This document shows positions 36,450-64,000 of a DNA stretch of 64,000 nucleotides, one piece after another (the first letter of the stretch is position 1; the number at the start of each line of letters is the position of its first letter). The position numbers and the translations under genes were made by a program. The stretch covers positions 37,482 through 101,481 of the forward strand of contig JAVCCJ010000075.1 in NCBI GenBank assembly GCA_030765585.1. Direction: 5' to 3'. The DNA is from Candidatus Zapsychrus exili. GTDB taxonomy: Bacteria > Omnitrophota > Gorgyraeia > Zapsychrales > Zapsychraceae. A model generated the notes under the pieces. It searched no databases and was not told the DNA's origin. It saw only the letters and a program-made list of their open reading frames with translations.

Positions 36450-38327
36450 ATGTTTTCAAACAAACAAGAAAAAGAGAACGCTAACGAAAGACAGTACATT
36501 CGTTTAAAAAGCGTTTTTCCTGTAGAATTTACCGTTGTTCGTCTTCCAGATAATTTGTTTGGGATTAATTGGCTACAAGGATATACGAGCAATGTTAGTA
36601 AAGGTGGTATTTGTCTTGAGACATCTTACTTGGATGAACGTATTTTTTCTTATTTAGAAAAAGAAGATACGTATTTAGAAACGCGAATACATATACCGCT
36701 CTTTTTGCCACCTATAAAGGCAATAACAGAAGTAGCATGGATTAAAAAAGAGTCTGGTGAAAACTCCCTTAAGTATAGAATTGGATTAAAATTTAAATCA
36801 ATAAATCCTGCTGATCTTAGAAGAATGTTAAGGCAGGCCAGATGGATAAGATTTTCATTTAAAGCCGTTGTTGTTTTGGCAATAAGTTTTCTTGTTGCAT
36901 TCTCTGTAGCTAGTTTTCGTAATTATACGCTTAGAGCAACAAATCGTAAATTAATAAATAAGTTTGTGACTGTTCAGCAACAGCATATACAAGAAAAAGA
37001 AGAATTAAATAGAGTGTCTGATGAAAAAAGAGTTATTCTTAGGCAAATTGAAGGACAAGCAGACACTGTAACAACTCGCAAAGAACTTCAGCTAGAGTAT
37101 GAAGTTCTTGCTAGACAAGAAAAACAGATATCAGATAGATTTAATATGCTTGAGGGAAAAAGAGAAGGCCTCGAAAAACAAGTTTTAGAAAAAATGTACT
37201 TATGGCTTAAGAATCATCAAAGCCCATCTACTGGTTTAGTTTTAAGTTTCGAAGGAAGTGTTGGCATAATAAATCACTGGTCTTTTACATATGATCAAGC
37301 TTTGGCTGTTAATGTTTTTATGTTGTTTGAAGATTACCAAGCAGCTAAGAAAATATTAGATTTTTTTAATAAAGAAGCAAAGAATAAATTTGGCGGATTT
37401 GCTAATGCATATTATTTTGATTCTGGGGATGTGACAGAATTTGTTGTACATTGTGGCCCTAATATTTGGTTAGGAATTGCAATTATGCAATATACAAAAA
37501 ATACAGGTGATTATTCGTATATGCCTTTAGCGCAGAAAATAGCTGACTGGACGATACATATTCAAGACGAGGACCCTGTAGGTGGCATAAAAGGGGGCCC
37601 AGAAAGTTCTTGGTTTGCCACTGAGCATAATTTAGATGCATATGCATTCTTTGAAATGATTTACAGCATGACAAAAGACACTAAGTATGAACTAGCTAAG
37701 CAGAAGTCATTATTCTGGCTTAAAACTTATGCTATGATTCCGCATTCAAAGGATTATAAATCTCCTCCTATCAAAAGAGGGAAAGGGGATGCAACTATTG
37801 CCACGGATACTTTTGCGTGGTCTCTTGCTACTTTGGGTCCAGAGAAGCTTATAAAAATTGGTATGGATCCTGAACAAATAATGAATTTTGCTGAAAAACA
37901 TTGTAAAGTAAATATTAAATTTAAAAGACCAAGTGATGTAGTAGTTGACGTAGAGGGTTTTGATTTTTCTAAGGAGACGCATATGCCAAGAGGCGGATTA
38001 GTTTCTCCAGAATGGACTTCGCAAATGATTATATCTTTCCAGATATTAAGTGAATACTTTGAAGGTCAAGGTAATTCTATCAAGGCAGGTTACTATATTG
38101 AGAAATCAGAAAAGTATTTAAATGAATTAAAAAAACTTATTATCTCAAGTCCTTCTGCTAGAGGACAAGGAGAAGGCTGTCTTCCCTACGCAACTTTAGC
38201 AAACGCTGATACGGGACATGGATGGAATACCCCTTTTGGAATAGATACTTGTTCTGTCGCAGGAACTGCGTATATGATTATGGCGTTGAAAGATTTTAAT
38301 CCTTTGATGTTTGACTTGCCCCGTTAG
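36450..38327 (+). CDS. PilZ-domain protein with a TM/coiled-coil linker and a C-terminal (alpha/alpha)6 glycosidase-like domain
   Basis: PilZ motifs RQYIRLKS (RxxxR) and DISKGGICLE (D/NxSxxG). TM helix (AVVVLAISFLVAFSVA). Coiled coil. C-terminal domain with six-hairpin-glycosidase-like repeats (HWSFTYDQALAVNVFML, GPNIWLGIAIMQY). Confidence 0.55.
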   Translation: MFSNKQEKENANERQYIRLKSVFPVEFTVVRLPDNLFGINWLQGYTSNVSKGGICLETSYLDERIFSYLEKEDTYLETRIHIPLFLPPIKAITEVAWIKKESGENSLKYRIGLKFKSINPADLRRMLRQARWIRFSFKAVVVLAISFLVAFSVASFRNYTLRATNRKLINKFVTVQQQHIQEKEELNRVSDEKRVILRQIEGQADTVTTRKELQLEYEVLARQEKQISDRFNMLEGKREGLEKQVLEKMYLWLKNHQSPSTGLVLSFEGSVGIINHWSFTYDQALAVNVFMLFEDYQAAKKILDFFNKEAKNKFGGFANAYYFDSGDVTEFVVHCGPNIWLGIAIMQYTKNTGDYSYMPLAQKIADWTIHIQDEDPVGGIKGGPESSWFATEHNLDAYAFFEMIYSMTKDTKYELAKQKSLFWLKTYAMIPHSKDYKSPPIKRGKGDATIATDTFAWSLATLGPEKLIKIGMDPEQIMNFAEKHCKVNIKFKRPSDVVVDVEGFDFSKETHMPRGGLVSPEWTSQMIISFQILSEYFEGQGNSIKAGYYIEKSEKYLNELKKLIISSPSARGQGEGCLPYATLANADTGHGWNTPFGIDTCSVAGTAYMIMALKDFNPLMFDLPR

Positions 38328-50679: not shown

Positions 50680-52067
50680 AAAACATAGAAGATACTATAG
50701 CTGCTATTTCTACTCCGGCGGGAACAGGCGGAATAGGCATAGTTCGCTTAAGTGGCCCCGAGTCTTTAAATATAGCAGAGAAAATCTTTTTGTCTAAAAC
50801 GGGCAAGAAAGTAGTTCAGTTTAAAAGTTTTTCTGTACATTATGGCTGGGCCATTGATAAAGATAATAATAATGAAATTATTGATGAAGTATTGCTCTCT
50901 GTTATGCGAGCGCCTAAAAGTTACACTACGGAAGATATTGTTGAAATAAGTTGTCACGGCGGCGGAGTTGCCTTACGTTCAATTCTCAAAGCAGTAATCA
51001 ATTTAGGCGCAAGATTAGCTGAGCCAGGAGAATTTACAAAAAGGGCATTTTTAAATGGAAGAATAGATTTAACTCAAGCTGAAGCAGTTTTAGACATAAT
51101 TAATTCAAAAACAGATGCATTCTTGAAAGTAAGCACACATCAATTAAAAGGAGACTTATCTTTAGAATTAGAAAGTATTAGAGAAGAGTTGATGAATATA
51201 TATACAGAAATAGAAGCTTTTGTTAATTTTCCAGAAGATGAAATAGATGTTCAAGGTAAAAAGAATTTAATGCTTGATATTGAATCATCGAAAGCGAGAG
51301 TGGATAGTCTGCTTAGTACGAGCGATCAAGGTAGGATATTAAAGGAAGGTATTAAAATTGTTCTTTGTGGAAGAACCAATATCGGGAAATCTTCTTTGCT
51401 AAATGTTTTATTGAAAACCCCACGTGCTATTGTATCTGATATTGCAGGCACGACGAGAGATACTATAGAAGAAACTACTCAGATAAATGATATTCCTTTT
51501 CAGATTATTGATACTGCGGGGATATTAACTCCAAATAACACAATAGAACAAGAGGCAATTAAAAGAAGTCATGATTCGATTGAAAGCTCTGATTTAGTTA
51601 TTCTAATTTTGGATTCAAGTTTCCCATTATCTAGAGAAGATGAAGATATAATAGAAAATGTTAAAGATAAGAACGTTCTGGTTGTTCTTAATAAATCTGA
51701 TTTAGAGAACAATTTAGATGAAAAAAGAATTAGAGAAACATTTTTAAATAAAAATATTCTAAAAATCTCCGCACTTAATAAAATTGGTATTGATGGGCTA
51801 AAAGAAGCTATTGTTAATTTTGTGCTCCATGGAGAAACCATTAAGACAGATGGTATATTCATTAGTAATTTAAGGCATATTCAGTCGCTTCAAAATGGGC
51901 AGAAAGCCTTAATGTTAGCAGGTAAGAATTTAAATAGGGAGATGTCTTTAGAGTTTGTTTCTGAAAGCATAAAGGAAGCAATTAATTTCTTAGACGAAAT
52001 AACAGGTCGTAATGCTAATCAAGATCTTCTTGATAAAATCTTTTCTCAATTTTGTATAGGTAAGTAA
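50667..52067 (+). CDS. mnmE: tRNA modification GTPase MnmE (TrmE)
   Basis: N-terminal THF-binding domain, G-domain GRTNIGKSSLLN / DTAG / NKSD, and C-terminal CIGK. Confidence 0.9.
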   Translation: MHKLKNIEDTIAAISTPAGTGGIGIVRLSGPESLNIAEKIFLSKTGKKVVQFKSFSVHYGWAIDKDNNNEIIDEVLLSVMRAPKSYTTEDIVEISCHGGGVALRSILKAVINLGARLAEPGEFTKRAFLNGRIDLTQAEAVLDIINSKTDAFLKVSTHQLKGDLSLELESIREELMNIYTEIEAFVNFPEDEIDVQGKKNLMLDIESSKARVDSLLSTSDQGRILKEGIKIVLCGRTNIGKSSLLNVLLKTPRAIVSDIAGTTRDTIEETTQINDIPFQIIDTAGILTPNNTIEQEAIKRSHDSIESSDLVILILDSSFPLSREDEDIIENVKDKNVLVVLNKSDLENNLDEKRIRETFLNKNILKISALNKIGIDGLKEAIVNFVLHGETIKTDGIFISNLRHIQSLQNGQKALMLAGKNLNREMSLEFVSESIKEAINFLDEITGRNANQDLLDKIFSQFCIGK

Positions 52068-52819
52068 CCCTGCTGCAATAAATTTTCAGAGCTTTTGTTC
52101 ATTTCTTCAGCTTGTTTTAGAACTTCTTTATTTGCATTTATCAAATCTTTTAAAAATTCTTGATCTGAGAATAAGGTTTGCATTTTTGGATCAGTCATTA
52201 GGCCTACAATATTCCCATCTTGCAGTTTTTCTTTGATGACTTCATCTGTAACAAAACTTTCAAAATCTTTATGAGACATTAATTTCTTAAATTTCTCAGA
52301 AGATCTTATGTTGCTTACCACTCCTTTGTTACTGATGAGGGCGGTAGTTTTTGCCATAATATCTTTAGAAGTAGGGATTTTGTATCCAGTTAACTTATTT
52401 GCTGTTTTATATGTTTTAGATTTGGATATATCAGTTTGAATTCTTTCAAGCCATTCATGTTTAGGTGGTACGATGGATATTATAATAATTAAAATGGCAA
52501 GTATGGTACCTTTCCAAAGTAAGCAAAATAAACTTCCTAGTGCTTTGCTTAAGATTGAATATTTCTCTTTAGTTCCGCTCGCTTTATTTAAAACTTTTCG
52601 TAAAAGATAAAAAGATATTTTAATAATAAAGGGTCCTATCATTGGGATAAGCGCAGCTTTAAACATATCTTTGCAAATACTGTAATATAAGAGGCCTATT
52701 AAGGAGCACACTATTAAGGAAATGGGCCCTAAGGCAGAGTTTAAAAATCCTTGTTTCCATCCTCTGTAAAGCAGGTAAATACCCGCTAAAATAACAATAT
52801 AATCTGTTATTGAGTTCAT
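52046..52819 (-). CDS. CvpA-family membrane protein with C-terminal extension
   Basis: N-terminal CvpA-like helices (DYIVILAGIYLLYRGWKQGFLNSALGPISLIVC). Converges on and overlaps mnmE by 22 nt. Confidence 0.5.
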   Translation of the reverse strand: MNSITDYIVILAGIYLLYRGWKQGFLNSALGPISLIVCSLIGLLYYSICKDMFKAALIPMIGPFIIKISFYLLRKVLNKASGTKEKYSILSKALGSLFCLLWKGTILAILIIIISIVPPKHEWLERIQTDISKSKTYKTANKLTGYKIPTSKDIMAKTTALISNKGVVSNIRSSEKFKKLMSHKDFESFVTDEVIKEKLQDGNIVGLMTDPKMQTLFSDQEFLKDLINANKEVLKQAEEMNKSSENLLQQGYLPIQN

Positions 52820-53206
52820 TTATTCTCTTTTTTTGTAGGTTAACTATTACGTATAATAGTATAGCATTGTTAATATTTTATTCAATAGAGGGCTTCATTA
52901 ATGTGTAAGTTTTAAAAAAGTTCAAAACTTGCACTTTATTCTAAAAATAGTTTAAAATAATCGCTTATAAATTTGCATTTTGTTCTTTTATGTATTATAT
53001 TTAAGGTGAAGTAAACGCTTCCTTTTTAAGAAAGAAGGCATTTACTAATTCCAGCCACGAAAGTTATAGTTCTTAATTCCAGCCACAGGTAGTTTTGTTA
53101 GAATTTTAGCTTAATAAAAAATAAATTTCTTGATAATCAGTGATTTAGGCATTAAAATAAAAATATATTTGTTGCAGAGCGTTGATAATAAATAACTTAT
53201 AAAGAT

Positions 53207-53530
53207 ATGATTGATCAAACAAACAAAAGAAAACATGAAAGACTAAGCTGCGTTGTCCCCATTGAGGCAAGAGCAGACAGTTTCTTTAGAAATGTTAAGA
53301 CCACTGACCTTAGCAAGGGTGGAGTAGGCCTAGTTTCTGAATTTGAAGTCTCTATTGGACAAGAAATTGCCATAGAAATACAATTAGGGAAAAGCTCAGA
53401 CTCAGTACTTGCAATAGGAAAGGTTCAATGGGTTGAACTGAATTCTAATCAGCTTAATTATAGAATAGGTATGCATTTTAAGGAAGTTTTACAAGGATCA
53501 AAAAGTAGGTTAAATAAGTTCTTTTCTTAA
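53207..53530 (+). CDS. stand-alone PilZ-domain protein (c-di-GMP receptor-like)
   Basis: RxxxR-like KRKHERL and D/NxSxxG (TTDLSKGGVGLVS) motifs. Confidence 0.6.
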   Translation: MIDQTNKRKHERLSCVVPIEARADSFFRNVKTTDLSKGGVGLVSEFEVSIGQEIAIEIQLGKSSDSVLAIGKVQWVELNSNQLNYRIGMHFKEVLQGSKSRLNKFFS

Positions 53531-53544
53531 ATAGAGGAAATAAT

Positions 53545-53877
53545 ATGCTTTTAGAAGAACAGGGTATAGACGGTAGACTTTTTGAAAGATTTCAAGCCAG
53601 GTTTCCTGCAAGATTTAAAGATACTCGCAGCGATTTTGGAGATAATGTAAGATTGCGTGATGCGTCAGCTCAAGGAGCGAAATTAACTACGAAAGATCGT
53701 CTTTATCTGCATGATAGTGTGTCTGTAGAGGTTAAACTTCCTGATGGACAAGATCCTTTAGTTATGAGAGGTAAGGTTGTTTGGTCTAAAAACAATGATC
53801 CTGACAATTGGGATATAGGTATAAGATTCCATAAAGTTAGCCTTATGAACATGTCTCGTCTTTTTAAATTTGTTTAA
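53545..53877 (+). CDS. stand-alone PilZ-domain protein (second tandem copy)
   Basis: ERFQARFPARF (R-rich switch) and DASAQGAKLTT (DxSxxG) motifs. Confidence 0.6.
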   Translation: MLLEEQGIDGRLFERFQARFPARFKDTRSDFGDNVRLRDASAQGAKLTTKDRLYLHDSVSVEVKLPDGQDPLVMRGKVVWSKNNDPDNWDIGIRFHKVSLMNMSRLFKFV

Positions 53878-53990
53878 TCTTCATCCCACCTTTGTTAAAA
53901 TACTTAATTATTCATATAATTTATTATACTTGTCTAAAAAAGACTATCGTATTAGAATGTATTTCCTAAAATAAACATAAGAGGATAGCT

Positions 53991-56696
53991 ATGGAATTTG
54001 ATTATTCGTATTTAGAAGACAGAATAAGCTTTAAATCTGACAATGCAAAGAGCTTAAGAACGATTTATTTCCCTTTATCTGGCATAGATGAAAAAGGTAT
54101 AAAATCTTCTATAACACCTTATTTATCAGGTGATATTAAAATAGATAAAAATTGCTATCTCACCAAACCAGTATCAACTGAAGACCTACGTTGTTCCCTA
54201 CGTAATTTCTTTTTATATTTAGAAGACAAACAAGTTCTATCAATAGCAAATGAAGAAGATTCTGAGTGTGAGTCTACTTTTCTTGAAGCTGGACAACTTT
54301 GGCAAGGTCTAACTAAACAATGCAAAAAAGGAATTGAGCTTAAAGCTTTGAATTTTGTTCCTGTTACAGGGCAAAATGTTGAGCTTATGAAAATAACAGT
54401 GCGAAATACTTCTAAAGATAATATTAAGTTTGTTCCAACAGCGGCCGTTCCAATATTTGCTAGATGTTTATCAAATAAGCATGATCATGAGCATGTTAGC
54501 TCTTTGTTAAATAGAATCAAACAGACGCCCGAGGGTGTTGTGGTTAAGCCTTCTATGGTATTTAACGAGGAGGGTCATAGAGAGAATAATACTATTTATT
54601 ATGTGGTAGGCGTAGATGATACTAGTAAATTACCAGAAGGAACATTTCCTACAGTAAATAGTTTTTTGGCAGATAACACAACGTTTTTAAATCCAGAAGC
54701 TGTTGTTAAGAATATAACTCCAGAGGTTTTAACTAATGTCCAACTGCAAGGAAAAGAGGCTGTTGGCGCTTTACGTTTTAATTTAATTGAATTGAAGCCT
54801 GAAGAGTCAAAAGAATATTTTATTTTGATGGGCGTAGCTCAAAATGAGAAAGAAATTAAGGAAGTATTTAATAGTTTTAATTCAAAAGAAAAATTTGATA
54901 AAGCTTTGTCAGAAAATAAAAAGCATTGGAAAGATATAACAGGTGCAATAACATTTTCTACAAAGGATGAAGATTTCAACTCTTGGATGAGGTGGGTGAC
55001 GTTACAGCCGATTCTTAGAAGGATTTTTGGATGTTCTTTTTTACCTGACCATGATTATGGAAAAGGAGGAAAAGGCTGGAGAGACATTTGGCAAGATCTG
55101 CTTTCTTTGATTTTAATTGAGCCTGATCAAGTAAGAGATACTCTTGTAAATAATTTTGCAGGTGTAAGAATTGATGGTTCAAATGCAACTATAATAGGAT
55201 CTAAGCCAGGTGAATTTATCGCCGATAGAAATGCTATATCTAGAGTTTGGATGGATCATGGAGTATGGCCTTTTACAGCGCTTCTTCTTTATATAAATCA
55301 AACGGGTGATTTTGATATTCTTTTTGAGAATCAAGCTTACTTTAAAGATCTTCAGTTATCTCGTTGTTCGGGAAAAGATATTTCTTGGAATTTAGCGCAA
55401 GGCAATCAATTAAAGAACGAGAAAGACAATGTTTATAAGGGCTCTTTGATAGAACATGTTTTAGTTCAACATTTAGTCCAGTTTTTTAATGTAGGGGAGC
55501 ACAATATTACAAAGTTAGAGAATGCTGATTGGAATGATGGTTTAGATATGGCAGCTAAACGTGGTGAAAGCGTTGCTTTTATGAGTTTTTATGGCGGCAA
55601 TATGCTTGCACTTGCTGATCTTTTAGAAAAAATAGCTAAAGAAAAAAATATATCAGAAATACCTGTCCTAGAGGAACTTTCAACTCTTTTAGATTCTGTT
55701 TCAAAAGATAGCGTTGACTATTCGAGCGTAAAACAGAAGCAAGATTTTTTATATGAGAAATATTTTAAATCTGTACAGCCTAAAGTAAATGGTAAACAGG
55801 TAATGCTTAAAATACAAGACATTGTGATTGATTTGCGTAAAAAGGGTCAATGGATTTTTGATTATATTAGAAATAATGAGAAAATTAAGTCCGGTGGTAA
55901 CTTATGGTTTAATGGATATTATGATAATGAAGGCAAAAAAGTTGAAGGAGATATTAAAGGCAAGACTAGAATGACTTTGACGGGGCAGGTTTTCCCTGTT
56001 ATGAGCGGTCTAGCAACAGAGGATGAAATAAAAAGTATTGTTGAATCAGTAGAAGAGCATTTGATTGATAAGGATTTAGGAGGAGTAAGGCTAAATACTG
56101 ATTTTGGAATAGATAATTATTTAAGTCTTGGTCGTGCGTTCGGATTTGCTTATGGTACAAAAGAAAATGGAGCGTTCTTTAGTCATATGACAGTTATGTA
56201 TGCTTATGCTTTATACTCTCGAGGTTTTGCTAGGGAAGGTTATAAAATATTGCAATCTATATATAAAATGGCAGCTGATACTAAAAAATCAAAGATTTAT
56301 CCTGGAATACCGGAGTATTTTGATTCAGAGGGAAAGGCTATGTATCATTATTTAACAGGTTCAGCAAGTTGGCTTGTTTTGACAGAGCTTACTCAAAGTT
56401 TTGGTATAAGGGCAGATGCTGGAGATCTTGTTTTTGATCCTAAGCTTGTAAAAGAAGAGTTTAATAGCGATGGAACTGCTTCAGCCACTTGTAATATGTT
56501 TGGTAAGGCGCTAACGGTTGTTTATGAAAATAAAGATTTATTAGATTATGGCTTCTATGAGGTTAAAGATATTGTTCTAAATGACACTAAGTTTGATGTT
56601 AATGTAAACTCTGATAATTTGAATAAAGTTATAAAAGAAAAGATTATTAAATTGTCTTCACCATTAAAATTTCGCATAATTCTTGGTAAAAAATAG
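53991..56696 (+). CDS. GH94-like (alpha/alpha)6-barrel glycoside phosphorylase/hydrolase (cellobiose/cellodextrin/chitobiose-phosphorylase-like)
   Basis: N-terminal beta-sandwich followed by an (alpha/alpha)6 domain with the ENADWNDGLDMA motif (DWND is my recollection of the GH94 catalytic Asp environment). 901 aa, no signal peptide. Confidence 0.5.
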   Translation: MEFDYSYLEDRISFKSDNAKSLRTIYFPLSGIDEKGIKSSITPYLSGDIKIDKNCYLTKPVSTEDLRCSLRNFFLYLEDKQVLSIANEEDSECESTFLEAGQLWQGLTKQCKKGIELKALNFVPVTGQNVELMKITVRNTSKDNIKFVPTAAVPIFARCLSNKHDHEHVSSLLNRIKQTPEGVVVKPSMVFNEEGHRENNTIYYVVGVDDTSKLPEGTFPTVNSFLADNTTFLNPEAVVKNITPEVLTNVQLQGKEAVGALRFNLIELKPEESKEYFILMGVAQNEKEIKEVFNSFNSKEKFDKALSENKKHWKDITGAITFSTKDEDFNSWMRWVTLQPILRRIFGCSFLPDHDYGKGGKGWRDIWQDLLSLILIEPDQVRDTLVNNFAGVRIDGSNATIIGSKPGEFIADRNAISRVWMDHGVWPFTALLLYINQTGDFDILFENQAYFKDLQLSRCSGKDISWNLAQGNQLKNEKDNVYKGSLIEHVLVQHLVQFFNVGEHNITKLENADWNDGLDMAAKRGESVAFMSFYGGNMLALADLLEKIAKEKNISEIPVLEELSTLLDSVSKDSVDYSSVKQKQDFLYEKYFKSVQPKVNGKQVMLKIQDIVIDLRKKGQWIFDYIRNNEKIKSGGNLWFNGYYDNEGKKVEGDIKGKTRMTLTGQVFPVMSGLATEDEIKSIVESVEEHLIDKDLGGVRLNTDFGIDNYLSLGRAFGFAYGTKENGAFFSHMTVMYAYALYSRGFAREGYKILQSIYKMAADTKKSKIYPGIPEYFDSEGKAMYHYLTGSASWLVLTELTQSFGIRADAGDLVFDPKLVKEEFNSDGTASATCNMFGKALTVVYENKDLLDYGFYEVKDIVLNDTKFDVNVNSDNLNKVIKEKIIKLSSPLKFRIILGKK

Positions 56697-56742
56697 GAAT
56701 TTTAATGGTATATCCTGCTTAAACTAAACTTAAAATTCTATT

Positions 56743-56771
56743 TTGACAATTATATTCCCTAATGATATACT
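56743..56771 (+). promoter_or_regulatory. sigma70-like promoter (TTGACA-N17-TATACT) upstream of the ABC transporter genes
   Basis: Perfect -35 TTGACA, 17-nt spacer and -10 TATACT. About 50 nt upstream of the ATG at 56824. Confidence 0.45.
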
Positions 56772-56823
56772 CATTGCTCTATACTTAATATCGTATAATA
56801 ATTATATGTTTTTAGGAGGTTAA

Positions 56824-58119
56824 ATGAAGCGAGTATTAAGCTTGTTTTTATGCTGTTTTTTAATTCTTTCAATAGGATGTGGAAAGAAAAAGAAAGATTC
56901 AAATACAATTACAATATGGCATTGGATGACAGATCGCCATAAGACTTTTGAGAGCCTTGCACAGAAATATGAAGAACAAACAGGAATAAAAGTTCAAATA
57001 GATTTATACGCCCCATCAGATGTATTTACCCACAAAATTATAGCTTCCGCCCAAGCAAGAGTACTTCCAGATATTTATGGAATTTTGGATAAAAAGAAAG
57101 TTTTTGCTTCTTTTATCGAGAACGGATTTGTTGCTGATTTAACAGAAGAATTTAAGAAAAATGATTCAGAATGGGAAAAGGCTATATTTCCAAAAGCATT
57201 AGATGTAAATCGTTTTAAAGAAGGAAATATATATAATATAAGACCAGGCATCTATGGAGAGCCTTTAGATGTTACTAATATTCAAATGCTTTATAATAGA
57301 AAGCTCCTTGAAAAGATAGGAGTTAAAACTCCTCCTGTGACATTTGAAGATTTTATCAATATAGCAGAATCTTTAAAGAGAATAGGTATATCAAGTTTAG
57401 TTTCTGGATGGGGTGAATTGTGGATGATAGAATGCTTTGCTTCTAATTACGCGTTTAATATTATGGGTGAGAAGAAAGTTATGGATACATTTAAAGGAGA
57501 AGTACCTTATACAGATCCTGATTGGATAAAGGTTTTTAGTATATTTAAAGATTTAGCTGATAGAGGTATTTTAGTAGAAGGCGTTGTTACTAAACCAAAT
57601 AAATTTGCTGAACAAGATTTCGCTCTTGAGCGTGCAGCATTTGCATTTAATGGATCGTGGTGTGTAAATGTTTATAATGATATGAATCCTGATCTTGAAT
57701 ATGGCGCTATGTTGCCGCCGTCAATTAATCCTAAATTGCCTATGAGAATATGGGGCGGAGCAGGGTCTTCTTTTGTTGTTAATCAAGATTCAACAAATAA
57801 GGACAAAGCTATCGCTTTCTTAAAATGGATAACAAACAAAGAGCAACAATCTTATTTGGCAAAAGAAACAAAAAATCTTCCTTCAAATCGTCAGGCCTTA
57901 TCTGATATACCTAAGATATTGTCTGAATTTGCAAGAGTCATGGATTACACGACTTATCCTTCTATTTGGGAATATAATGAAGCAGCATTGGTTTCAGAGA
58001 AATTTAACAGAGGTATTCAGTCTATCATTATAGGTGAGAAAACACCTCAAGAAGTAGCAGAAGAAGTGCAGGCGGTTAAACAAAAAGAATTGGAAAAAGC
58101 TAAGAGAAAAAGAAAATAA
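56824..58119 (+). CDS. ABC transporter extracellular solute-binding lipoprotein (carbohydrate, family 1)
   Basis: Lipoprotein signal (LILSIGCGKKKK). Sugar-binding-protein-family length and motifs. First gene of the SBP-permease-permease trio. Confidence 0.8.
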   Translation: MKRVLSLFLCCFLILSIGCGKKKKDSNTITIWHWMTDRHKTFESLAQKYEEQTGIKVQIDLYAPSDVFTHKIIASAQARVLPDIYGILDKKKVFASFIENGFVADLTEEFKKNDSEWEKAIFPKALDVNRFKEGNIYNIRPGIYGEPLDVTNIQMLYNRKLLEKIGVKTPPVTFEDFINIAESLKRIGISSLVSGWGELWMIECFASNYAFNIMGEKKVMDTFKGEVPYTDPDWIKVFSIFKDLADRGILVEGVVTKPNKFAEQDFALERAAFAFNGSWCVNVYNDMNPDLEYGAMLPPSINPKLPMRIWGGAGSSFVVNQDSTNKDKAIAFLKWITNKEQQSYLAKETKNLPSNRQALSDIPKILSEFARVMDYTTYPSIWEYNEAALVSEKFNRGIQSIIIGEKTPQEVAEEVQAVKQKELEKAKRKRK

Positions 58120-59043
58120 ATGCCAGCAATACGCAAAAATAATTTATTAGCTAAAGCAATAGATAATTCTGTTAATTTTTCTTTTGTTCTACCAGCTATT
58201 GCTATATTTTCAATTTTTTATATTTATCCTTTTTATGATATTTTTAATTTATCGCTTCATGAATGGAACGGTATTAGCTCTTATAGGGAATTTGTTGGTT
58301 TAGCTAATTTTAAAGAATTGATGGTAGACAAAATTTGGTGGAAGTCAATTTGGCATGCTGGTTTTATAACTATAATAGCTTTAACTTTTCAAAATATGCT
58401 TGCATTTTCATTAGCTCTTGTTTGTGATAGACAAATTCGTTTAAAGAAATTTTATAGGACAGTGTTTTTTATTCCACCTGTTTTATCTGAGATAGTTGTT
58501 GGTTTAATTTGGCAGTGGATTCTTTATGCAGGAACTCAATCAGGAGAGCATATAGGTCTTCTTAATTATGTTCTTGTTAAAAGCGGATTACCGCATTTGG
58601 TTAATAATTGGTTATCTAATCCAAAAACAGCCTTAACATGCATAGCCCTTGTTCATTGTTGGAAAGGTTTTGGCTGGGGATTTATCATTCTGCTTGCAGG
58701 TTTGCAGACAATTGATAGTCAGTTGTATGAAGCTGCACGTGTAGATGGTGCTGGAAGCTGGAAGACATTTAGGCATGTGACTCTTCCTATGATGATGCCT
58801 GTGATTCTAGTTGTTATTATTCTAACAGTGCTCGGTTCTATGCAGGTGTTTATCTTGATAATATCTATGGTAGGACAAGGACTTGGATACCATACAGAAG
58901 TTCCTGTCACGAGAATACTTTCATCTATGATGGGGACAGGTAGATATGGTTATGCATGTGCGATGGGAGTTAGCTTTGGAGCGATATTGATTACTATCTC
59001 AGCAGCGTTTAAATATTTATCTAATAAAACAAAACAAGTTTAA
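58120..59043 (+). CDS. ABC sugar transporter permease (MalF/UgpA-like)
   Basis: Six TM helices. EAA loop EAARVDGAGSWKTFRHVTLP. Confidence 0.85.
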   Translation: MPAIRKNNLLAKAIDNSVNFSFVLPAIAIFSIFYIYPFYDIFNLSLHEWNGISSYREFVGLANFKELMVDKIWWKSIWHAGFITIIALTFQNMLAFSLALVCDRQIRLKKFYRTVFFIPPVLSEIVVGLIWQWILYAGTQSGEHIGLLNYVLVKSGLPHLVNNWLSNPKTALTCIALVHCWKGFGWGFIILLAGLQTIDSQLYEAARVDGAGSWKTFRHVTLPMMMPVILVVIILTVLGSMQVFILIISMVGQGLGYHTEVPVTRILSSMMGTGRYGYACAMGVSFGAILITISAAFKYLSNKTKQV

Positions 59044-59047
59044 ATTT

Positions 59048-59890
59048 ATGATAAACAAATATACAATTAAGAAATTCTTTATATCTATAATTACTCATAT
59101 TTTTTTAATGACTGTTGCGATGTCGTGCTTGTTTCCGCTTTTTTGGATGTTACGTTGTGCATTAATGACCAATGAAACTGTATTTGTTGATAAATCGATT
59201 ATTCCAAGCCAGATGAATTTTGGAAATTTTATTACTGCTTGGGTAGAAGGTGGTTTTGGAATATATTTCTTAAATAGTATTATTTATACAGCATCGGTTG
59301 TTTTTGGCATTGTTATAATTGCTTCATTAGCTGGTTACGCATTTTCTCGACTGAGATTCCCAGGAAAGAACCTATTTTTCTATATGTTTATTGCGGCCCT
59401 AATGATACCTTTGCCGGGAAGCTTTGTTCCCTTAGTAGTGCTTATGAACAAACTAGGCTGGGCAAATACTAGATATGGTTATATACTTTGTATGATAAAT
59501 GTAGGTTTATCTATGAGCATATTATTGTTTAAGACATTTTTTGATAAAATGTCTCCCGACTTAGAAGATGCTGCAAGAATCGATGGATGTGGCAGGTTAG
59601 GTATTTGGTGGCACGTAGCGCTTCCTTTAGCAAGGCCTGCAATTGCGGTTGTTGTTATTTTTAATTCTTTAAATGTATGGAATGAATATATTTTGGCGAA
59701 TCTTTTACTGAATGATAAATCTCTTATGCCTTTGCAAAGAGGATTAATGGTATTTCAAGGTTCGCATAGTGTAGATTATCCATTGTTGATGTCTGGTTTA
59801 GCTATTGCGGTAGTTCCGATTGTAGTAGTTTATTTAGTTATGCAAAAGCATATTATAAAAGGACTTTCGTCGGGCATTACTGTTGGATAA
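59048..59890 (+). CDS. ABC sugar transporter permease (MalG/UgpE-like)
   Basis: Six TM helices. EAA loop EDAARIDGCGRLGIWWHVALPLARPA. Confidence 0.85.
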   Translation: MINKYTIKKFFISIITHIFLMTVAMSCLFPLFWMLRCALMTNETVFVDKSIIPSQMNFGNFITAWVEGGFGIYFLNSIIYTASVVFGIVIIASLAGYAFSRLRFPGKNLFFYMFIAALMIPLPGSFVPLVVLMNKLGWANTRYGYILCMINVGLSMSILLFKTFFDKMSPDLEDAARIDGCGRLGIWWHVALPLARPAIAVVVIFNSLNVWNEYILANLLLNDKSLMPLQRGLMVFQGSHSVDYPLLMSGLAIAVVPIVVVYLVMQKHIIKGLSSGITVG

Positions 59891-59919
59891 TTTTTGTATT
59901 AATTAAAAAGAGTAAAATT

Positions 59920-62307
59920 ATGAATATTAAAACAAAGATAATCAGTATTTTCTTAATTGCATTTTTTCTGTGTATAGCGAGTTCTGTGCATTCTGAAGAA
60001 GAAGTTGTTAGCCGAGATCAAGAAATATCTGAAATATTGCAAGATGTTTATGAGGAAGAGCTTGTTGTGTCTGAAGAAGCTATGTCTTCTTCAGAGTTTG
60101 TAAAATTGTTATGGGAAGCTTCTAGTAAGAGAGACTTGAAAAGAGTAGAGATCTTAGTAAGCGAATGCCTTGCTTTATATGGTCAAGAGGCAAAACTTTT
60201 AGAGGAGCAATTAGAAGGATTTCCTACAAGAGGAGAGGAAGAAAATTATAAATCTTTAAACGATGTTGCGACTTGTCTTTTTATTAGAGCTGAATTTTAT
60301 ATGAATAGTGGAAAAGGCGAAGAAGCGGTTAAGAAATTTCAAGAAATAATTGTTTTATATCGTTGGGCTCAAGCCTGGGATCCTCGTGGCTGGTATTGGT
60401 CTGTTGCAGAAAAGTCTCAAGCCAGTATAGATGTTTTGACAGGAAAGGCGCAAGAAGAAGCAGATAAAGACCAAGAAAAAGTTGATCTCATCTTGCCTAA
60501 TATTGCTACAAAAGGGACGGAAGATATTATAGATTACAGCAAGTATGGAAAGTTTCTTAATGTAGGAAAAGAGAATTATCATTATTCCATAAAAGATCTT
60601 GATGGTCTAAAGCAGGCTTTAGGAGAAGGTATTTATCCTAATACAAGAGATGTTTATAAAAATCCTAGATATAAAGAAGTTAAAAAAGAAGGTCGTTTAA
60701 ATGGAAGCCATTGGGATTTTGTAAACACGTACGATTTGGAAGCTGCTTATTTTAAATGGGTTGCTGCTCCTGATACTTGGGGAGTTAGACTTTTTTATTT
60801 AGGTATGGTATTTGAGAAATCAGGTATGTATTACGAGGCCCTTAAGGCATACCACTCTTTAATAATACATTTTCCAAAGACAATTGGATGGACATATTGG
60901 CAAACCCCTTGGTATCCTGCACAAGCTGCGATAGCAAAAATTAAATATATTATTCGCTCGCATCCAGAGTTGAATGTTAAAGCTAAATGGATGAAGATTG
61001 AAGTTAAGAACGGTTATGATAATGATGACAAGAATGATACTATTGTGACGTATCCTGGAAGAATTTTGCCAAAAGGTATTATTGATAGGGTTAAAGATGC
61101 ATTTAATTTAGAGGAAAGAGTTATTCTAAAGAAGGTAATTAAAAAGGTTGGGAAAGGCAAGGTTAGACTTGTTCAGTATGATAATGGTCATTGGCAACTT
61201 CTAGTAGAAAATAAGCCTTATGTGATAAAAGGCATTACTTATGTGCCTACTAAGGTAGGGCAAAGCCCTGATAAGGGTACGCTTGTTAATTGGATGGAAG
61301 AAGATAGTAATAAAAATGGTAATATTGACGGTCCATTTGATTCGTGGGTTGATAAAAATAAAAATAACGAGCAAGATGAGGACGAGCCAATTGTAGGTGA
61401 TTTTCAACTTATGAAAGAAATGGGAGCAAATACTTTAAGAATTTATCATGTACCTGAAATTCCAAATAAAGAACTTTTAAGGAAGATGTATAAGGATTAT
61501 GGTATTAGAGTTATTATGGGAGATTTTATTGGTAAATATGCTATAGGTTCTGGAGCTAGTTGGACTGAAGGAACAGATTATGAAAATCTTGATCATAAAA
61601 AGAAAATGCTTGAATCTGTGAGGAAAATGGTAATGGAACATAAAGATGAGCCTTACCTTTTAATGTGGCTTTTAGGAAATGAGAATAATTATGGAGTTGC
61701 TTGTAACGCTGATAAAAAACCAGAGGCATATTTTAAATTTGCAGATGAAGTAGCTAAGATGATTAAGAGTATTGACAAAAATCATCCTGTTGCTGTGAAT
61801 AATGGAGATACTCTTTTCCTAGATGTATTTGCTAAAAATTCTCCTAATGTGGATATTTTCTCAGCGAATGTATATAGAGGAAATTATGGTTTTGGTTCTT
61901 TTTGGGAACAAGTTTTTGACGCTAGCGGAAAGCCTGCATTTATAACAGAATATGGTTGCCCTGCATATGCCCCTCATCTAACTTTAGAAGAAGGTGAGGA
62001 AGTTCAAGCCGAGTATCATAAGGGTAATTGGATGGATATTGAAGAAAATTTTGCTGGACGTAGCACAGGAATTGGAAACTCTTTAGGTGGAGTTACGTTT
62101 GAATGGATGGATGAATGGTGGAAAAATTATGAACCTTATATGCATGATAGAAAATCAGATGCTGTAGGTCCTTTTCCAGGTGGGTATTATTTTGAGGAAT
62201 GGTTTGGACTTGTTAGCCAGGGAAAAGGAAGAGAAAGCCCCTTCTTAAGACAGCCTAGAAAAAGCTATTTTACATATAAAGAGCTTTGGAATCGTAACCT
62301 TCCTTAA
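59920..62307 (+). CDS. secreted two-module protein: N-terminal unrecognised WDPxGWxW domain plus C-terminal clan GH-A (TIM-barrel) glycoside hydrolase-like domain
   Basis: Signal peptide. The N-terminal domain carries SLNDVATCLF...WAQAWDPRGWYWSVAEKS. The C-terminal domain carries GANTLRIYH, the acid/base LLGNENNYG, the nucleophile ITEYGCPAY and an EF-hand/dockerin-like loop DSNKNGNIDGPFD. Confidence 0.55.
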   Translation: MNIKTKIISIFLIAFFLCIASSVHSEEEVVSRDQEISEILQDVYEEELVVSEEAMSSSEFVKLLWEASSKRDLKRVEILVSECLALYGQEAKLLEEQLEGFPTRGEEENYKSLNDVATCLFIRAEFYMNSGKGEEAVKKFQEIIVLYRWAQAWDPRGWYWSVAEKSQASIDVLTGKAQEEADKDQEKVDLILPNIATKGTEDIIDYSKYGKFLNVGKENYHYSIKDLDGLKQALGEGIYPNTRDVYKNPRYKEVKKEGRLNGSHWDFVNTYDLEAAYFKWVAAPDTWGVRLFYLGMVFEKSGMYYEALKAYHSLIIHFPKTIGWTYWQTPWYPAQAAIAKIKYIIRSHPELNVKAKWMKIEVKNGYDNDDKNDTIVTYPGRILPKGIIDRVKDAFNLEERVILKKVIKKVGKGKVRLVQYDNGHWQLLVENKPYVIKGITYVPTKVGQSPDKGTLVNWMEEDSNKNGNIDGPFDSWVDKNKNNEQDEDEPIVGDFQLMKEMGANTLRIYHVPEIPNKELLRKMYKDYGIRVIMGDFIGKYAIGSGASWTEGTDYENLDHKKKMLESVRKMVMEHKDEPYLLMWLLGNENNYGVACNADKKPEAYFKFADEVAKMIKSIDKNHPVAVNNGDTLFLDVFAKNSPNVDIFSANVYRGNYGFGSFWEQVFDASGKPAFITEYGCPAYAPHLTLEEGEEVQAEYHKGNWMDIEENFAGRSTGIGNSLGGVTFEWMDEWWKNYEPYMHDRKSDAVGPFPGGYYFEEWFGLVSQGKGRESPFLRQPRKSYFTYKELWNRNLP

Positions 62308-62410
62308 AAGTTCAAAATTGGCATTTTTCGAAGAAATAGTGTATACTTTATTTTACAATTCTAATATATAATAATATAAGATTAATATTAACATAATAGG
62401 AGGAGAAAGA

Positions 62411-63289
62411 ATGAGAAAGACTTTAACAGTATTTTTGCTGGCAGCTATTTGTTTAGTAGCCCCTAAAATCGCCCTTGCATATAATTTTGGTGATTTTGGA
62501 TCTGCCACTTTGGTTAATAAGGCCTGGCAAGCACATAGTCAAGGAGATGTTGAAGGCGTGTTGGCCTATACAAACAAGTGTCTTGAGCTTTATGCAGAAC
62601 AGGCTCAACAAATGCAAAGTGAGCTTGATAGTTATGTAGAAGGTTCAAATGAAAAGATTTTTGAGAAATGGGCATTGAATGATGTGGCAACTGCTTTGTT
62701 TGTTCAAGCAGAAGCTTATCGTATGGCAGGTATGGCAGAAGAAGCAAGTAAGGTGTACACCAGTATAATTGAGAATTATGCTTATGGGCAAACGTGGGAT
62801 GCAGGCGGATGGTTTTGGAAACCGGCAGAAGCTTCTCGTGATCAATTAAAGATAATTGAGACAGGTTTAGTTTTAGATTTTGGAAATAGTTCTTCTTCAT
62901 TCTTAGTAGGTCAAGCTTGGAAGTCTTTGCATAATAATGCACATGATGCAGTTGTTATTTATGTTAAGAAAGCTTTAGAACTATATGAAGGCGAAGCAAA
63001 AAATATGCAAGATTCTCTGACAGAATATCCTTGGGAATCTAATGATAAAATTCTTACATATTGGGCATTAAATGATATTGGAACTGCTCTTTTTATCTTG
63101 GGCGAATCTTATAAAAAAGTAGAAGACCGAGAAGGAGCTAGAGAGGCATATAAGAAATTAATTAATGATTTTTATTATGCTCAGTGTTGGGATCCTAAAG
63201 GATGGTTTTGGAAACCAGCAGAAGTTGCTCAGCAAGCACTAGAAGATCTAGGCAACCTTCCAGATACAAATCTTGAAAGATTTAAATAA
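62411..63289 (+). CDS. secreted protein made of two tandem copies of the WDPxGWFWKPAE domain
   Basis: Signal peptide. Repeat 1 carries ALNDVATALF...GQTWDAGGWFWKPAEAS; repeat 2 carries ALNDIGTALF...AQCWDPKGWFWKPAEVA. Paralogous to the N-terminal domain of 59920..62307. Confidence 0.45.
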   Translation: MRKTLTVFLLAAICLVAPKIALAYNFGDFGSATLVNKAWQAHSQGDVEGVLAYTNKCLELYAEQAQQMQSELDSYVEGSNEKIFEKWALNDVATALFVQAEAYRMAGMAEEASKVYTSIIENYAYGQTWDAGGWFWKPAEASRDQLKIIETGLVLDFGNSSSSFLVGQAWKSLHNNAHDAVVIYVKKALELYEGEAKNMQDSLTEYPWESNDKILTYWALNDIGTALFILGESYKKVEDREGAREAYKKLINDFYYAQCWDPKGWFWKPAEVAQQALEDLGNLPDTNLERFK

Positions 63290-63309
63290 TATTTGAAGTT
63301 TTAATTTAA

Positions 63310-63357
63310 CCTAATGTCAATTTTATAATTTTTAAATTGGCATTAGGTAGTTTTGTT
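63310..63357 (+). terminator. terminator-like hairpin CCTAATGtCAAT-N14-ATTGGCATTAGG followed by a T-rich tract
   Basis: 12-bp stem with one mismatch, then TAGTTTTGTTT. Downstream of 62411..63289. Confidence 0.4.
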
Positions 63358-63377
63358 TAATAAGGAAAGTTTAATTA

Positions 63378-64000
63378 ATGTTAGTAAAAAAGTTTTTATT
63401 TGTATTAGTTTGTATATGTTTTTTATTTTCAGGGTGTTCAGAGTACAATAAAAGTAAAGAACAATCCCCTGTTGATTTAGATCAAAAATCTCTTTATGTA
63501 TCTGATATAGCAGATGTATTTGATAATAAAATATTGAATGTAAAACAAAAAGATGTCGTTGATTATAGCTCTTTAGAAGAATCAGTTGTATATCAAGAGT
63601 ATGGCGTCGAGCAAACAGCAGGAAATACATTGCAGCAAGCTTTTGAACCTTTTTATGTTTATTATGAAAAAGGTTCTCCTCAAAATCATTATATACCCTC
63701 AGGTTTTATGCCAAACGGAAAATGTCTTTCTTTAAGTGATGGATGGATGTCGGATTGTCATTCTGCGCAGACATGTATAAAGGTAGAGTATGATTTACAA
63801 TGTTCAAGACAGGATCAAAGATGGGCAGGAATTTATTGGTTAAATCCAGCAAATAATTGGGGAGGCCGAAAAGGTGGATTTAATCTGACTGGTGCAGAGA
63901 AATTAGTTTTTTGGGCAAAGGGAAATAAAGGCGGAGAGCAGATAAACGAAGTTATAGTCGGTGGAATTTCTGGAGATTATCCTGATTCAGATAAAACTTG
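63378..64000 (+). CDS. secreted lipoprotein, partial (runs off the window end)
   Basis: RBS AAGGAAAG. Signal peptide with lipobox LFSGCS. Open frame to the window end (not in the ORF track because no stop falls inside the window). Confidence 0.5.
   Translation, partial: MLVKKFLFVLVCICFLFSGCSEYNKSKEQSPVDLDQKSLYVSDIADVFDNKILNVKQKDVVDYSSLEESVVYQEYGVEQTAGNTLQQAFEPFYVYYEKGSPQNHYIPSGFMPNGKCLSLSDGWMSDCHSAQTCIKVEYDLQCSRQDQRWAGIYWLNPANNWGGRKGGFNLTGAEKLVFWAKGNKGGEQINEVIVGGISGDYPDSDKT

Follow-up and report, generated by a model that had tools for sequence, protein, structure and literature searches.

A tandem pair of PilZ genes linked to a laminaribiose phosphorylase homolog in Omnitrophota hints at c-di-GMP control of β-1,3-glucan breakdown

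Most of what is known about cyclic di-GMP (c-di-GMP) receptors of the PilZ family comes from exopolysaccharide synthesis, motility and pili. Here we analyze a locus of the uncultured bacterium Candidatus Zapsychrus exili (Omnitrophota) in which two small stand-alone PilZ genes, PilZ1 and PilZ2, lie upstream of a gene for a laminaribiose phosphorylase (LBP) homolog of glycoside hydrolase (GH) family 94, followed by genes for a sugar importer and a secreted glycoside hydrolase. The 64,000-nucleotide (nt) stretch analyzed, taken from contig JAVCCJ010000075.1, is referred to as the window, and all coordinates are counted from its first letter unless a relative is named. Dozens of related genomes retain the PilZ-GH94 link, a hint from gene order that in these bacteria a second messenger controls sugar breakdown. 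PilZ2, the secreted hydrolase and a third, 625-residue PilZ protein of the window each share 100% identity with an NCBI protein from the metagenome-assembled genome of Ca. Zapsychrus exili. The organism was described from Ace Lake, Antarctica, and PilZ, c-di-GMP and laminarin are unmentioned in that description (PMC8542988). An earlier sequence-only reading of the window had proposed an oligosaccharide uptake and phosphorolysis locus under c-di-GMP control, and all of the open reading frames (ORFs) that it listed are present where it placed them.

On the catabolic side, the closest described systems are the LBP clusters of Paenibacillus sp. YM-1 and Acholeplasma laidlawii, which have laminarinase or β-glucosidase genes in their vicinity. 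The Acholeplasma clusters contain a substrate-binding protein (SBP) and two permeases with no nucleotide-binding domain gene, and a laminarinase nearby (PMC6484121), and the Paenibacillus and Clostridium loci among the 80 LBP loci that we compared carry the same transporter set beside LBP. The window locus shares with these clusters the enzyme subfamily, the SBP and two permeases without an ATPase gene, and the combination of an extracellular β-1,3-glucanase with intracellular phosphorolysis (PMC6484121; Firmicutes loci L057, L070, L072 and L075); a LacI-family regulator lies nearby in these clusters, as it does in the Omnitrophota relatives. It differs in its endoglucanase, which is GH158-like with N-terminal helical repeats whereas theirs is GH16, and in the PilZ pair heading the predicted phosphorylase operon, as no Firmicutes locus has PilZ genes. 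The catabolic module is a known kind of laminarin/laminaribiose cluster, and the PilZ pair is the unusual part.

Single-domain PilZ adaptors (MapZ-CheR1, HapZ-SagS and the Xanthomonas PilZ-PilB-FimX system) are the nearest counterparts of the PilZ pair, being likewise about 110 amino acids long, with a PilZ core, a C-terminal helix and canonical motifs, and with partner-protein binding as the expected mode of action. Their partners, however, belong to chemotaxis, two-component signaling and pili, none being a catabolic glycoside phosphorylase, whereas here two tandem paralogs always occur together, in a predicted operon with a catabolic enzyme. A post-translational precedent for c-di-GMP control of a glycan-catabolic enzyme is found in glycan breakdown by Streptomyces GlgX; there, in contrast to the arrangement considered here, the nucleotide binds the enzyme directly without a PilZ adaptor, and the substrate is an α-glucan (glycogen), not a β-1,3-glucan. 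Published surveys of the PilZ family give no glycoside phosphorylase partner, and our literature search returned no paper joining PilZ to laminaribiose phosphorylase, or Omnitrophota to laminaribiose.

Two further systems invite comparison. The Bacteroides β(1,3)-glucan locus with BuGH158 (Déjean et al. 2020, PMC7157763) also relies on a secreted or surface GH158-type depolymerase with a catalytic Asn-Glu pair and Glu, but the window locus has no SusC/SusD, GH16, GH3 or hybrid two-component system regulator; uptake here is of the ABC type, the disaccharide is predicted to be phosphorolysed rather than hydrolysed, and the window hydrolase is only about 20% identical to BuGH158 and carries other accessory domains. 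In Omnitrophota themselves, a preprint by West-Roberts et al. (2023, 10.1101/2023.11.21.568195) noted as conserved small pilZ homologs followed by SBP-dependent transporters and glycosyl hydrolases, an arrangement which, compared by its description, resembles the one seen here and is the nearest earlier mention of it. That study associates these genes with giant genes and with degradation of prey cell walls, and the phosphorylase, substrate and operator are not identified in it; in the window, by contrast, no giant gene occurs in the 53 kb upstream.

Both small ORFs at the head of the locus, PilZ1 (53207..53530, + strand, 107 amino acids) and PilZ2 (53545..53877, + strand, 110 amino acids), match Pfam PF07238 well above its gathering cutoff of 22.5 bits (E 3.9e-12, 46.8 bits and E 1.5e-12, 48.1 bits, respectively). 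Each consists of one PilZ domain of 107-110 residues, without the second PilZ-like domain present in MrkH/PlzA. The c-di-GMP motifs are R8-KHE-R12 and D34-L-S36-KG-G39 in PilZ1 and R11-LFE-R15 and D39-A-S41-AQ-G44 in PilZ2. Across 28 sequences of 33-53% identity, conservation of the PilZ1 residues in R8xxxR12 and D34xS36xxG39 is 90% or higher, while R11, R15, S41 and G44 of PilZ2 are invariant in 28 sequences and position 39 is either D or N. The motif residues on which the PilZ assignment of the sequence-only reading hung are therefore in place, and both ortholog groups (27 members each, 33-60% identity) retain RxxxR and (D/N)xSxxG. The two proteins are paralogs (31% identity, E 2e-12), with PilZ2 forming a separate orthologous group. 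A profile search with PilZ2 returned 369 proteins; among the 120 matches listed, all are 106-131 amino acids long and every organism name given is Omnitrophota or Omnitrophica. By domain and motifs, both small proteins are predicted to be canonical c-di-GMP receptors.

The gene that follows (53991..56696, + strand) encodes a predicted cytoplasmic protein of 901 amino acids whose best match in the PDB is the structurally solved and biochemically characterized LBP of Paenibacillus sp. YM-1 (PsLBP, 6GGY; E 1e-261, 874 bits). The alignment runs end to end, residues 14-870 against 17-879, and places the catalytic-site motif ADWNDGLD with GADWNDGLD of PsLBP; Pfam finds the GH94 catalytic domain (PF17167, E 2.4e-28) and supersandwich domain (PF06165, E 2.7e-8), so that what had been called a GH94-like enzyme is a true GH94 member. 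The runners-up are the GH94 domain of cyclic glucan synthase (1e-25) and cellobiose phosphorylases (1e-23), and cellobiose, chitobiose and other GH94 enzymes as a whole fall between E 1e-12 and 1e-25. The protein is specifically a homolog of laminaribiose phosphorylase, with predicted phosphorolytic activity. Cellobiose and chitobiose were dropped as candidate substrates because the corresponding GH94 enzymes fall about 240 orders of magnitude short of the LBP score.

To follow the gene order beyond the window, we assembled 80 loci with LBP homologs from species-representative genomes and used the window proteins as queries against the six-frame ORFs of these loci. PilZ1 and PilZ2 lie upstream of LBP on the same strand in 27 of the 80 loci, directly upstream in 26 and with a large ORF between in the remaining one (L029); all 27 are Omnitrophota metagenome-assembled genomes, a few of which bear other phylum labels. 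The six PilZ2 homologs whose contigs were inspected independently also stand in a PilZ-PilZ-GH94 arrangement (6/6), and the recurrence of this order in 27 species-level genomes together with these six argues that it exceeds chance. The full set, PilZ1-PilZ2-LBP-SBP-permease-permease-hydrolase, is found in 16 loci, 15 of which continue with the repeat protein described below (L015 stops at the hydrolase gene), and the tail of the cluster in relatives comprises a lipoprotein (15 loci), a coiled-coil protein of about 450 residues (14 loci) and a LacI-family regulator (8 loci).

The trio also persists where its surroundings change. Lipopolysaccharide glycosyltransferases (GT2/GT9) replace mnmE-cvpA upstream in L026 and L081, a phage-like insert separates cvpA from the PilZ pair in L009, and in L012, L035, L083 and L084, which lack the transporter and hydrolase at this place, ychF-prfB-secA comes after LBP. 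L081 and L089 show a 4-8-nt overlap of the PilZ1 and PilZ2 genes, and in L089 the gap between PilZ2 and LBP is 8 nt. By gene order, PilZ1-PilZ2-LBP is the invariant core of the locus, and since the trio survives in loci without transporter and hydrolase, the PilZ pair is tied to the phosphorylase rather than to the transporter. In a neighbor-joining tree, PilZ-linked LBPs all fall in one Omnitrophota clade, where 29 linked members (the window included) are interspersed with 8 unlinked ones, and neither the second Omnitrophota LBP clade nor the Firmicutes contain PilZ-linked members; this distribution is consistent with a single origin of the linkage followed by several losses.

Several relatives carry additional genes within or beside the locus. 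An extra MFS_2 (GPH-type) sugar transporter gene lies between the phosphorylase and SBP genes (L007 12793-14229; L023 12818-14293; L045 9876-11357; L024 12823-14092; L089 10059-11489), which would mean two uptake routes. The block of unfamiliar genes between cvpA and the PilZ pair in L009 (3746-8891) includes one with Peptidase_S74 (endosialidase chaperone, phage tail-fiber type) and looks like a prophage remnant or mobile insert. A large ORF follows ychF, prfB and secA in L083 (18441-20327) and L084 (16025-17911); called at 1442 amino acids, it runs past the end of the fetched locus and may be related to the Omnitrophota giant genes. A 958-residue ORF of L045 and a 1251-residue ORF of L029 were considered as GH149 or GH161 enzymes and ruled out, as Pfam matches neither.

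Upstream of PilZ1 in the relatives we find a palindrome, GAAAnCGnTTTC, that has the form of a LacI-family operator. Allowing at most one mismatch, it is found 39 times across the 27 loci (464 kb), compared with about 15 times in shuffled sequence, and 17 of the 39, including eight of the nine perfect ones, lie within 400 nt upstream of PilZ1, a space that makes up about 2% of the sequence. Because a LacI-type palindrome is enriched at this position, the PilZ genes would be the first genes of an operon under sugar-type regulation, and co-transcription of the PilZ genes with LBP is likely in the window genome. A LacI-family gene stands at the end of the cluster in the 8 relatives noted above; the window's own copy would be expected just past position 64000. 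The spacer between PilZ2 and LBP has no k-mer conserved across the loci.

The intergenic control region of the window (52820..53206, + strand), between the divergent cvpA gene and PilZ1, has further features. Promoter-like sites precede PilZ1 at 53130-53158 and 53182-53211. Two identical copies of a 13-nt direct repeat, TAATTCCAGCCAC, stand 28 nt apart at 53046-53058 and 53074-53086, and the second copy is abutted by AGGTAGTTTTGTT (53087-53099), of which an exact second copy lies upstream of the lipoprotein gene (63345-63357); with up to two mismatches AGGTAGTTTTGTT has 11 matches in the window against 3.9 expected, and it may be a shared regulatory site. At 52899-52938 there is an 18-nt inverted repeat, TAATGTGTAAGTTTTAAA/TTCAAAACTTGCACTTTA, with 83% complementarity and a 4-nt spacer, and a similar half-site, GTTCAAAATTGGCA, lies ahead of the gene for the 292-residue protein (62311). 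The Rfam family FopS scores 29 bits at 52980-53050 (E 0.16), below its gathering score of 56, and this match was dismissed as chance.

Downstream of LBP, the SBP gene (56824..58119, + strand) encodes a lipoprotein of 431 amino acids with lipobox LSIGC, belonging to a CUT1-type sugar ABC importer; it matches SBP_bac_8 (E 1e-28) and SBP_bac_1 (E 1e-26) and weakly resembles MalE, NgcE and GanS. The two permeases (58120..59043, 307 amino acids, and 59048..59890, 280 amino acids, both on the + strand) match BPD_transp_1 with E 9e-22 and 2e-17 and are similar to GlcT, UgpA and MalF and to UgpE, GlcU and MalG, respectively. The ABC signature LSGGQ is in no ORF of the window, nor in the related loci, and so the claim of an SBP and two permeases with no ATPase gene in the window is borne out; for incomplete transporter clusters of this kind beside LBP, it has been proposed that an ATPase is shared from elsewhere in the genome (PMC6484121). 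The sigma-70-like promoter proposed ahead of the SBP gene is likewise present as a consensus match (TTGACA-17-TATACT with an upstream TG, 56743..56771, + strand), which is the top match in 52000..64000, a region where promoter-like sites in total do not exceed the shuffled expectation.

The next gene (59920..62307, + strand) encodes a secreted protein of 795 amino acids in which Pfam and a structural model together delineate a signal peptide, TPR-like helices, a β-sandwich and a GH2_C-type TIM barrel. Pfam assigns the barrel to GH2_C, with a further weak match to GH72, and the NCBI annotation reads only 'GH2 TIM barrel-domain protein'. The best family in a single-sequence PDB search is GH158 (E 1.5e-10), and a 17-sequence profile finds the GH158 structures 9oro (E 2e-15) and BuGH158 6pal (E 2e-13), with only about 134 residues aligned. 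An AlphaFold model built on 30 homologs (predicted local distance difference test score, pLDDT, 79; predicted template-modeling score, pTM, 0.78) has a helical region at residues 57-347, a β-strand region before the barrel at 353-441 and a barrel that extends to the C-terminus (about residue 790 of 795). When this model was searched with Foldseek, the six best matches were GH158 structures (E 1e-11 to 1.4e-9; TM-scores 0.49-0.54 on the target, 19-22% identity), followed by GH2, the β-1,3-glucanosyltransferase family GH72, GH35 and GH5. In BuGH158 the catalytic residues are N136/E137, with the acid/base on β4, and the nucleophile E220 on β7 (PMC7157763). N587-E588 and E677 of the window enzyme, which are invariant in 30 homologs, align to the GH158 NE and TE(F/W)G motifs.

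The barrel is thus of clan GH-A, in agreement with the GH-A-type glycosidase first proposed, and its nearest relatives by profile and predicted fold are GH158 endo-β-1,3-glucanases. We file the enzyme as GH158-like clan GH-A, and not as a member of GH158, because the C-terminal immunoglobulin-like (Ig-like) domain of BuGH158 is absent and an N-terminal helical region and β-sandwich are found instead. [quoted passage not shown] It suggests that these Omnitrophota can attack laminarin-type glucans themselves, a point relevant to their role in carbon turnover and to the debate over free-living versus predatory lifestyles.

Two further proteins complete the window part of the cluster. A protein of 292 amino acids (62411..63289, + strand) with TPR_6 and TPR_2 matches consists of two copies of an approximately 120-residue helical module that corresponds to residues 57-173 of the hydrolase (35% and 33% identity, BLASTP E 6e-22 and 2e-17), and this common module bears out its description as a paralogous secreted repeat protein. 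The lipoprotein gene that runs off the window end (63378..64000, + strand), for which the earlier description gave no start, begins MLVKKFLFVLVCICFLFSGC..., has the lipobox LFSGC and is a conserved cluster member, with 64% identity to its L009 ortholog (L009 19409-20074). The full-length lipoprotein of the relatives has about 220 residues and a conserved motif, GIYWLNPANNWG. Pfam and PDB searches with the lipoprotein gave no match, and no Pfam family reaches threshold for the coiled-coil protein of about 450 residues in the relatives; both may be glycan-binding or surface-anchoring components.

Since the phosphorylase is an LBP homolog and the hydrolase is closest to GH158 endo-β-1,3-glucanases, the substrate of the locus is predicted to be β-1,3-glucan. 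In the pathway that we propose, the secreted GH158-like endoglucanase would cleave β-1,3-glucan outside the cytoplasm, possibly aided by the helical-repeat protein and the lipoprotein; uptake of the resulting oligosaccharides would fall to the SBP and two permeases, with power supplied by an ATPase from elsewhere in the genome; and the cytoplasmic GH94 enzyme would convert laminaribiose to glucose and glucose-1-phosphate. c-di-GMP would bind to the PilZ proteins, which may work as a pair, and these would then serve as adaptors for the phosphorylase or for pathway flux, such that sugar catabolism would track the c-di-GMP state of the cell. We give this reading as a whole, a β-1,3-glucan (laminarin)/laminaribiose cluster with the PilZ pair as c-di-GMP adaptors, a probability of about 0.55. 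It builds on the catabolic gene identities, the conserved c-di-GMP motifs, the operonic linkage of the PilZ genes with LBP and the LacI-type site of the relatives, which sequence comparison establishes. The more specific prediction that PilZ1 and PilZ2 form a c-di-GMP-dependent pair that binds LBP and switches its activity or direction is put forward tentatively. With regard to the sequence-only reading, a locus for oligosaccharide uptake and phosphorolysis is supported by the LBP homolog, SBP and permeases; of its proposal that c-di-GMP controls both processes, the genomic link between PilZ and enzyme is real, whereas control of uptake is not supported, the link being with the phosphorylase and not with the transporter.

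Control of LBP by the pair, if true, would be without precedent for a PilZ receptor and a catabolic glycoside phosphorylase, and would place β-glucan catabolism in Omnitrophota directly under c-di-GMP signaling, beside ordinary LacI control. A conserved PilZ-phosphorylase operon would widen c-di-GMP control to sugar breakdown, and would supply a concrete and easily assayed partner for the large and mostly uncharacterized single-domain PilZ class.

A number of observations weigh against the adaptor reading or against parts of it. Eight LBPs of the PilZ-linked clade lack the PilZ pair, and LBP therefore does not need it. The mnmE and cvpA genes are conserved in 23 of the 27 loci, so that a generally stable gene order may account for part of the synteny. 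A gene for a protein of 1234-1251 amino acids lies between the PilZ pair and LBP in L029 and L087, and LBP has no insertion or residue specific to PilZ-linked genes; 11 clade-specific LBP residues that were considered as such a feature were rejected, because they are shared with the PilZ-less members of the clade and reflect phylogeny. In the window itself, the operator-like site GTAAACGCTTCC (53011-53022) is a degenerate half-palindrome with two mismatches that is not significant alone, PilZ2 and LBP are separated by 113 nt with promoter-like sites, and there is no diguanylate cyclase in the 64 kb, where searches for GGDEF, EAL and HD-GYP motifs were negative. The specificity of the hydrolase is likewise a prediction from homology and fold, because it is 19-22% identical to the GH158 structures and its model has no C-terminal Ig-like domain of the BuGH158 type. 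As to the interrupting gene, its product has no Pfam match and is encoded on the same strand (L029 3438-7193; L087 7484-11188), and a perfect GAAAACGCTTTC site closely precedes it in L029.

The regulatory and structural evidence can also be read in ways that leave the phosphorylase out. The PilZ proteins could be outputs of the sugar regulon, co-induced with the phosphorylase by β-glucan and acting on a distant partner, for which a type IV pilus or type II secretion ATPase or the motility/attachment machinery would be candidates, so that substrate availability is coupled to adhesion or predatory contact. The LacI-type operator upstream of PilZ1 suits such co-induction, the closest solved relatives of the PilZ2 profile, although weak matches (E 3e-5 to 2e-4), are the Xanthomonas type IV pilus PilZ structures 3dsg and 3cnr, which bind PilB and FimX, and several homologs carry the JGI label 'Tfp pilus assembly protein PilZ'. 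The preprint introduced above moreover sets pilZ and SBP-dependent carbohydrate transporters beside Omnitrophota giant genes and secretion/pilus loci, as predation functions (10.1101/2023.11.21.568195). We nevertheless consider a distant partner unlikely, as the window contains no pilus, secretion or giant gene, nor does one lie beside the trio in most relatives, and the strict adjacency to LBP, at times with overlapping genes, indicates LBP itself. Gene-order conservation may alternatively reflect mere neighborhood, with the PilZ genes held in place by slow decay of gene order and playing no role in glucan metabolism. The almost equal conservation of the unrelated flank purH-folC-mnmE-cvpA, the loss of the pair beside eight LBPs of the clade and the splitting of pair from LBP in L029 and L087 all speak for this. 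The trio nonetheless stays intact when either flank is replaced, its genes overlap or are nearly contiguous in some genomes, the 17 operator matches lie upstream of PilZ1 and not between PilZ2 and LBP, and no sampled PilZ2 homolog stands apart from a GH94 gene (6/6), which together make mere neighborhood distinctly improbable.

Least probable of the explanations weighed here is that PilZ1 and PilZ2 form a c-di-GMP-dependent nucleic-acid-binding regulator, a split analog of MrkH/PlzA, that controls transcription of the phosphorylase operon. Borrelia PlzA connects c-di-GMP with the use of glycerol and chitobiose. The paralogous PilZ domains of the locus are always encoded as a pair, and both proteins are basic in the window (predicted isoelectric points 9.2 and 9.5; ortholog medians 9.1 and 8.9); MrkH, furthermore, is a PilZ-containing transcriptional regulator whose C-terminal helix is implicated in DNA binding (10.1101/814665). 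The isoelectric points of orthologs, however, fall as low as 4.9, no DNA-binding domain is detectable in PilZ1 or PilZ2, and the LacI-type operator and the LacI gene of the cluster already explain transcriptional control. We therefore retain the reading of the pair as c-di-GMP adaptors on the phosphorylase or on pathway flux.

A third PilZ protein is encoded elsewhere in the window (36450..38327, 625 amino acids). Its PilZ domain (residues 14-127, E 1e-6, with RxxxR and NxSxxG) is followed by a transmembrane helix (about residues 137-159), a coiled coil of about 100 residues and a C-terminal (α/α)6 barrel (model pLDDT 83.5). Pfam and PDB sequence searches with the C-terminal domain were empty even at E 10, and it was resolved only by a fold search, in which Foldseek matched the barrel to AGE-type sugar epimerases, GH76, a GH8-like amylase and glucoamylase (E 3e-8, TM-score about 0.6). 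The protein is conserved across Omnitrophota at 42-59% identity, with Pfam detecting the PilZ part alone, and its neighbors in the window and in two relatives encode an M48 peptidase, TPR proteins, Omp85, YjbQ, PfkB and Era. The PilZ-transmembrane-(α/α)6 architecture proposed from sequence therefore holds at the level of fold, but the protein is unrelated to the glucan locus, from which it lies 15 kb away among envelope-type and housekeeping genes. Given a cytoplasmic PilZ domain, the (α/α)6 barrel should be extracytoplasmic, and this topology suggests that c-di-GMP acts from the inside out to control a periplasmic domain that is glycan-active or glycan-binding.

An Rfam search over the window found no c-di-GMP riboswitch, two tRNAs elsewhere being the sole matches to reach the gathering score. 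The GC content of the window is 30-38%. Every 2-kb bin has a positive GC skew (0.10-0.32) and nearly all long ORFs lie on the + strand, which suggests that the window belongs to a single replichore with a strong gene-strand bias.

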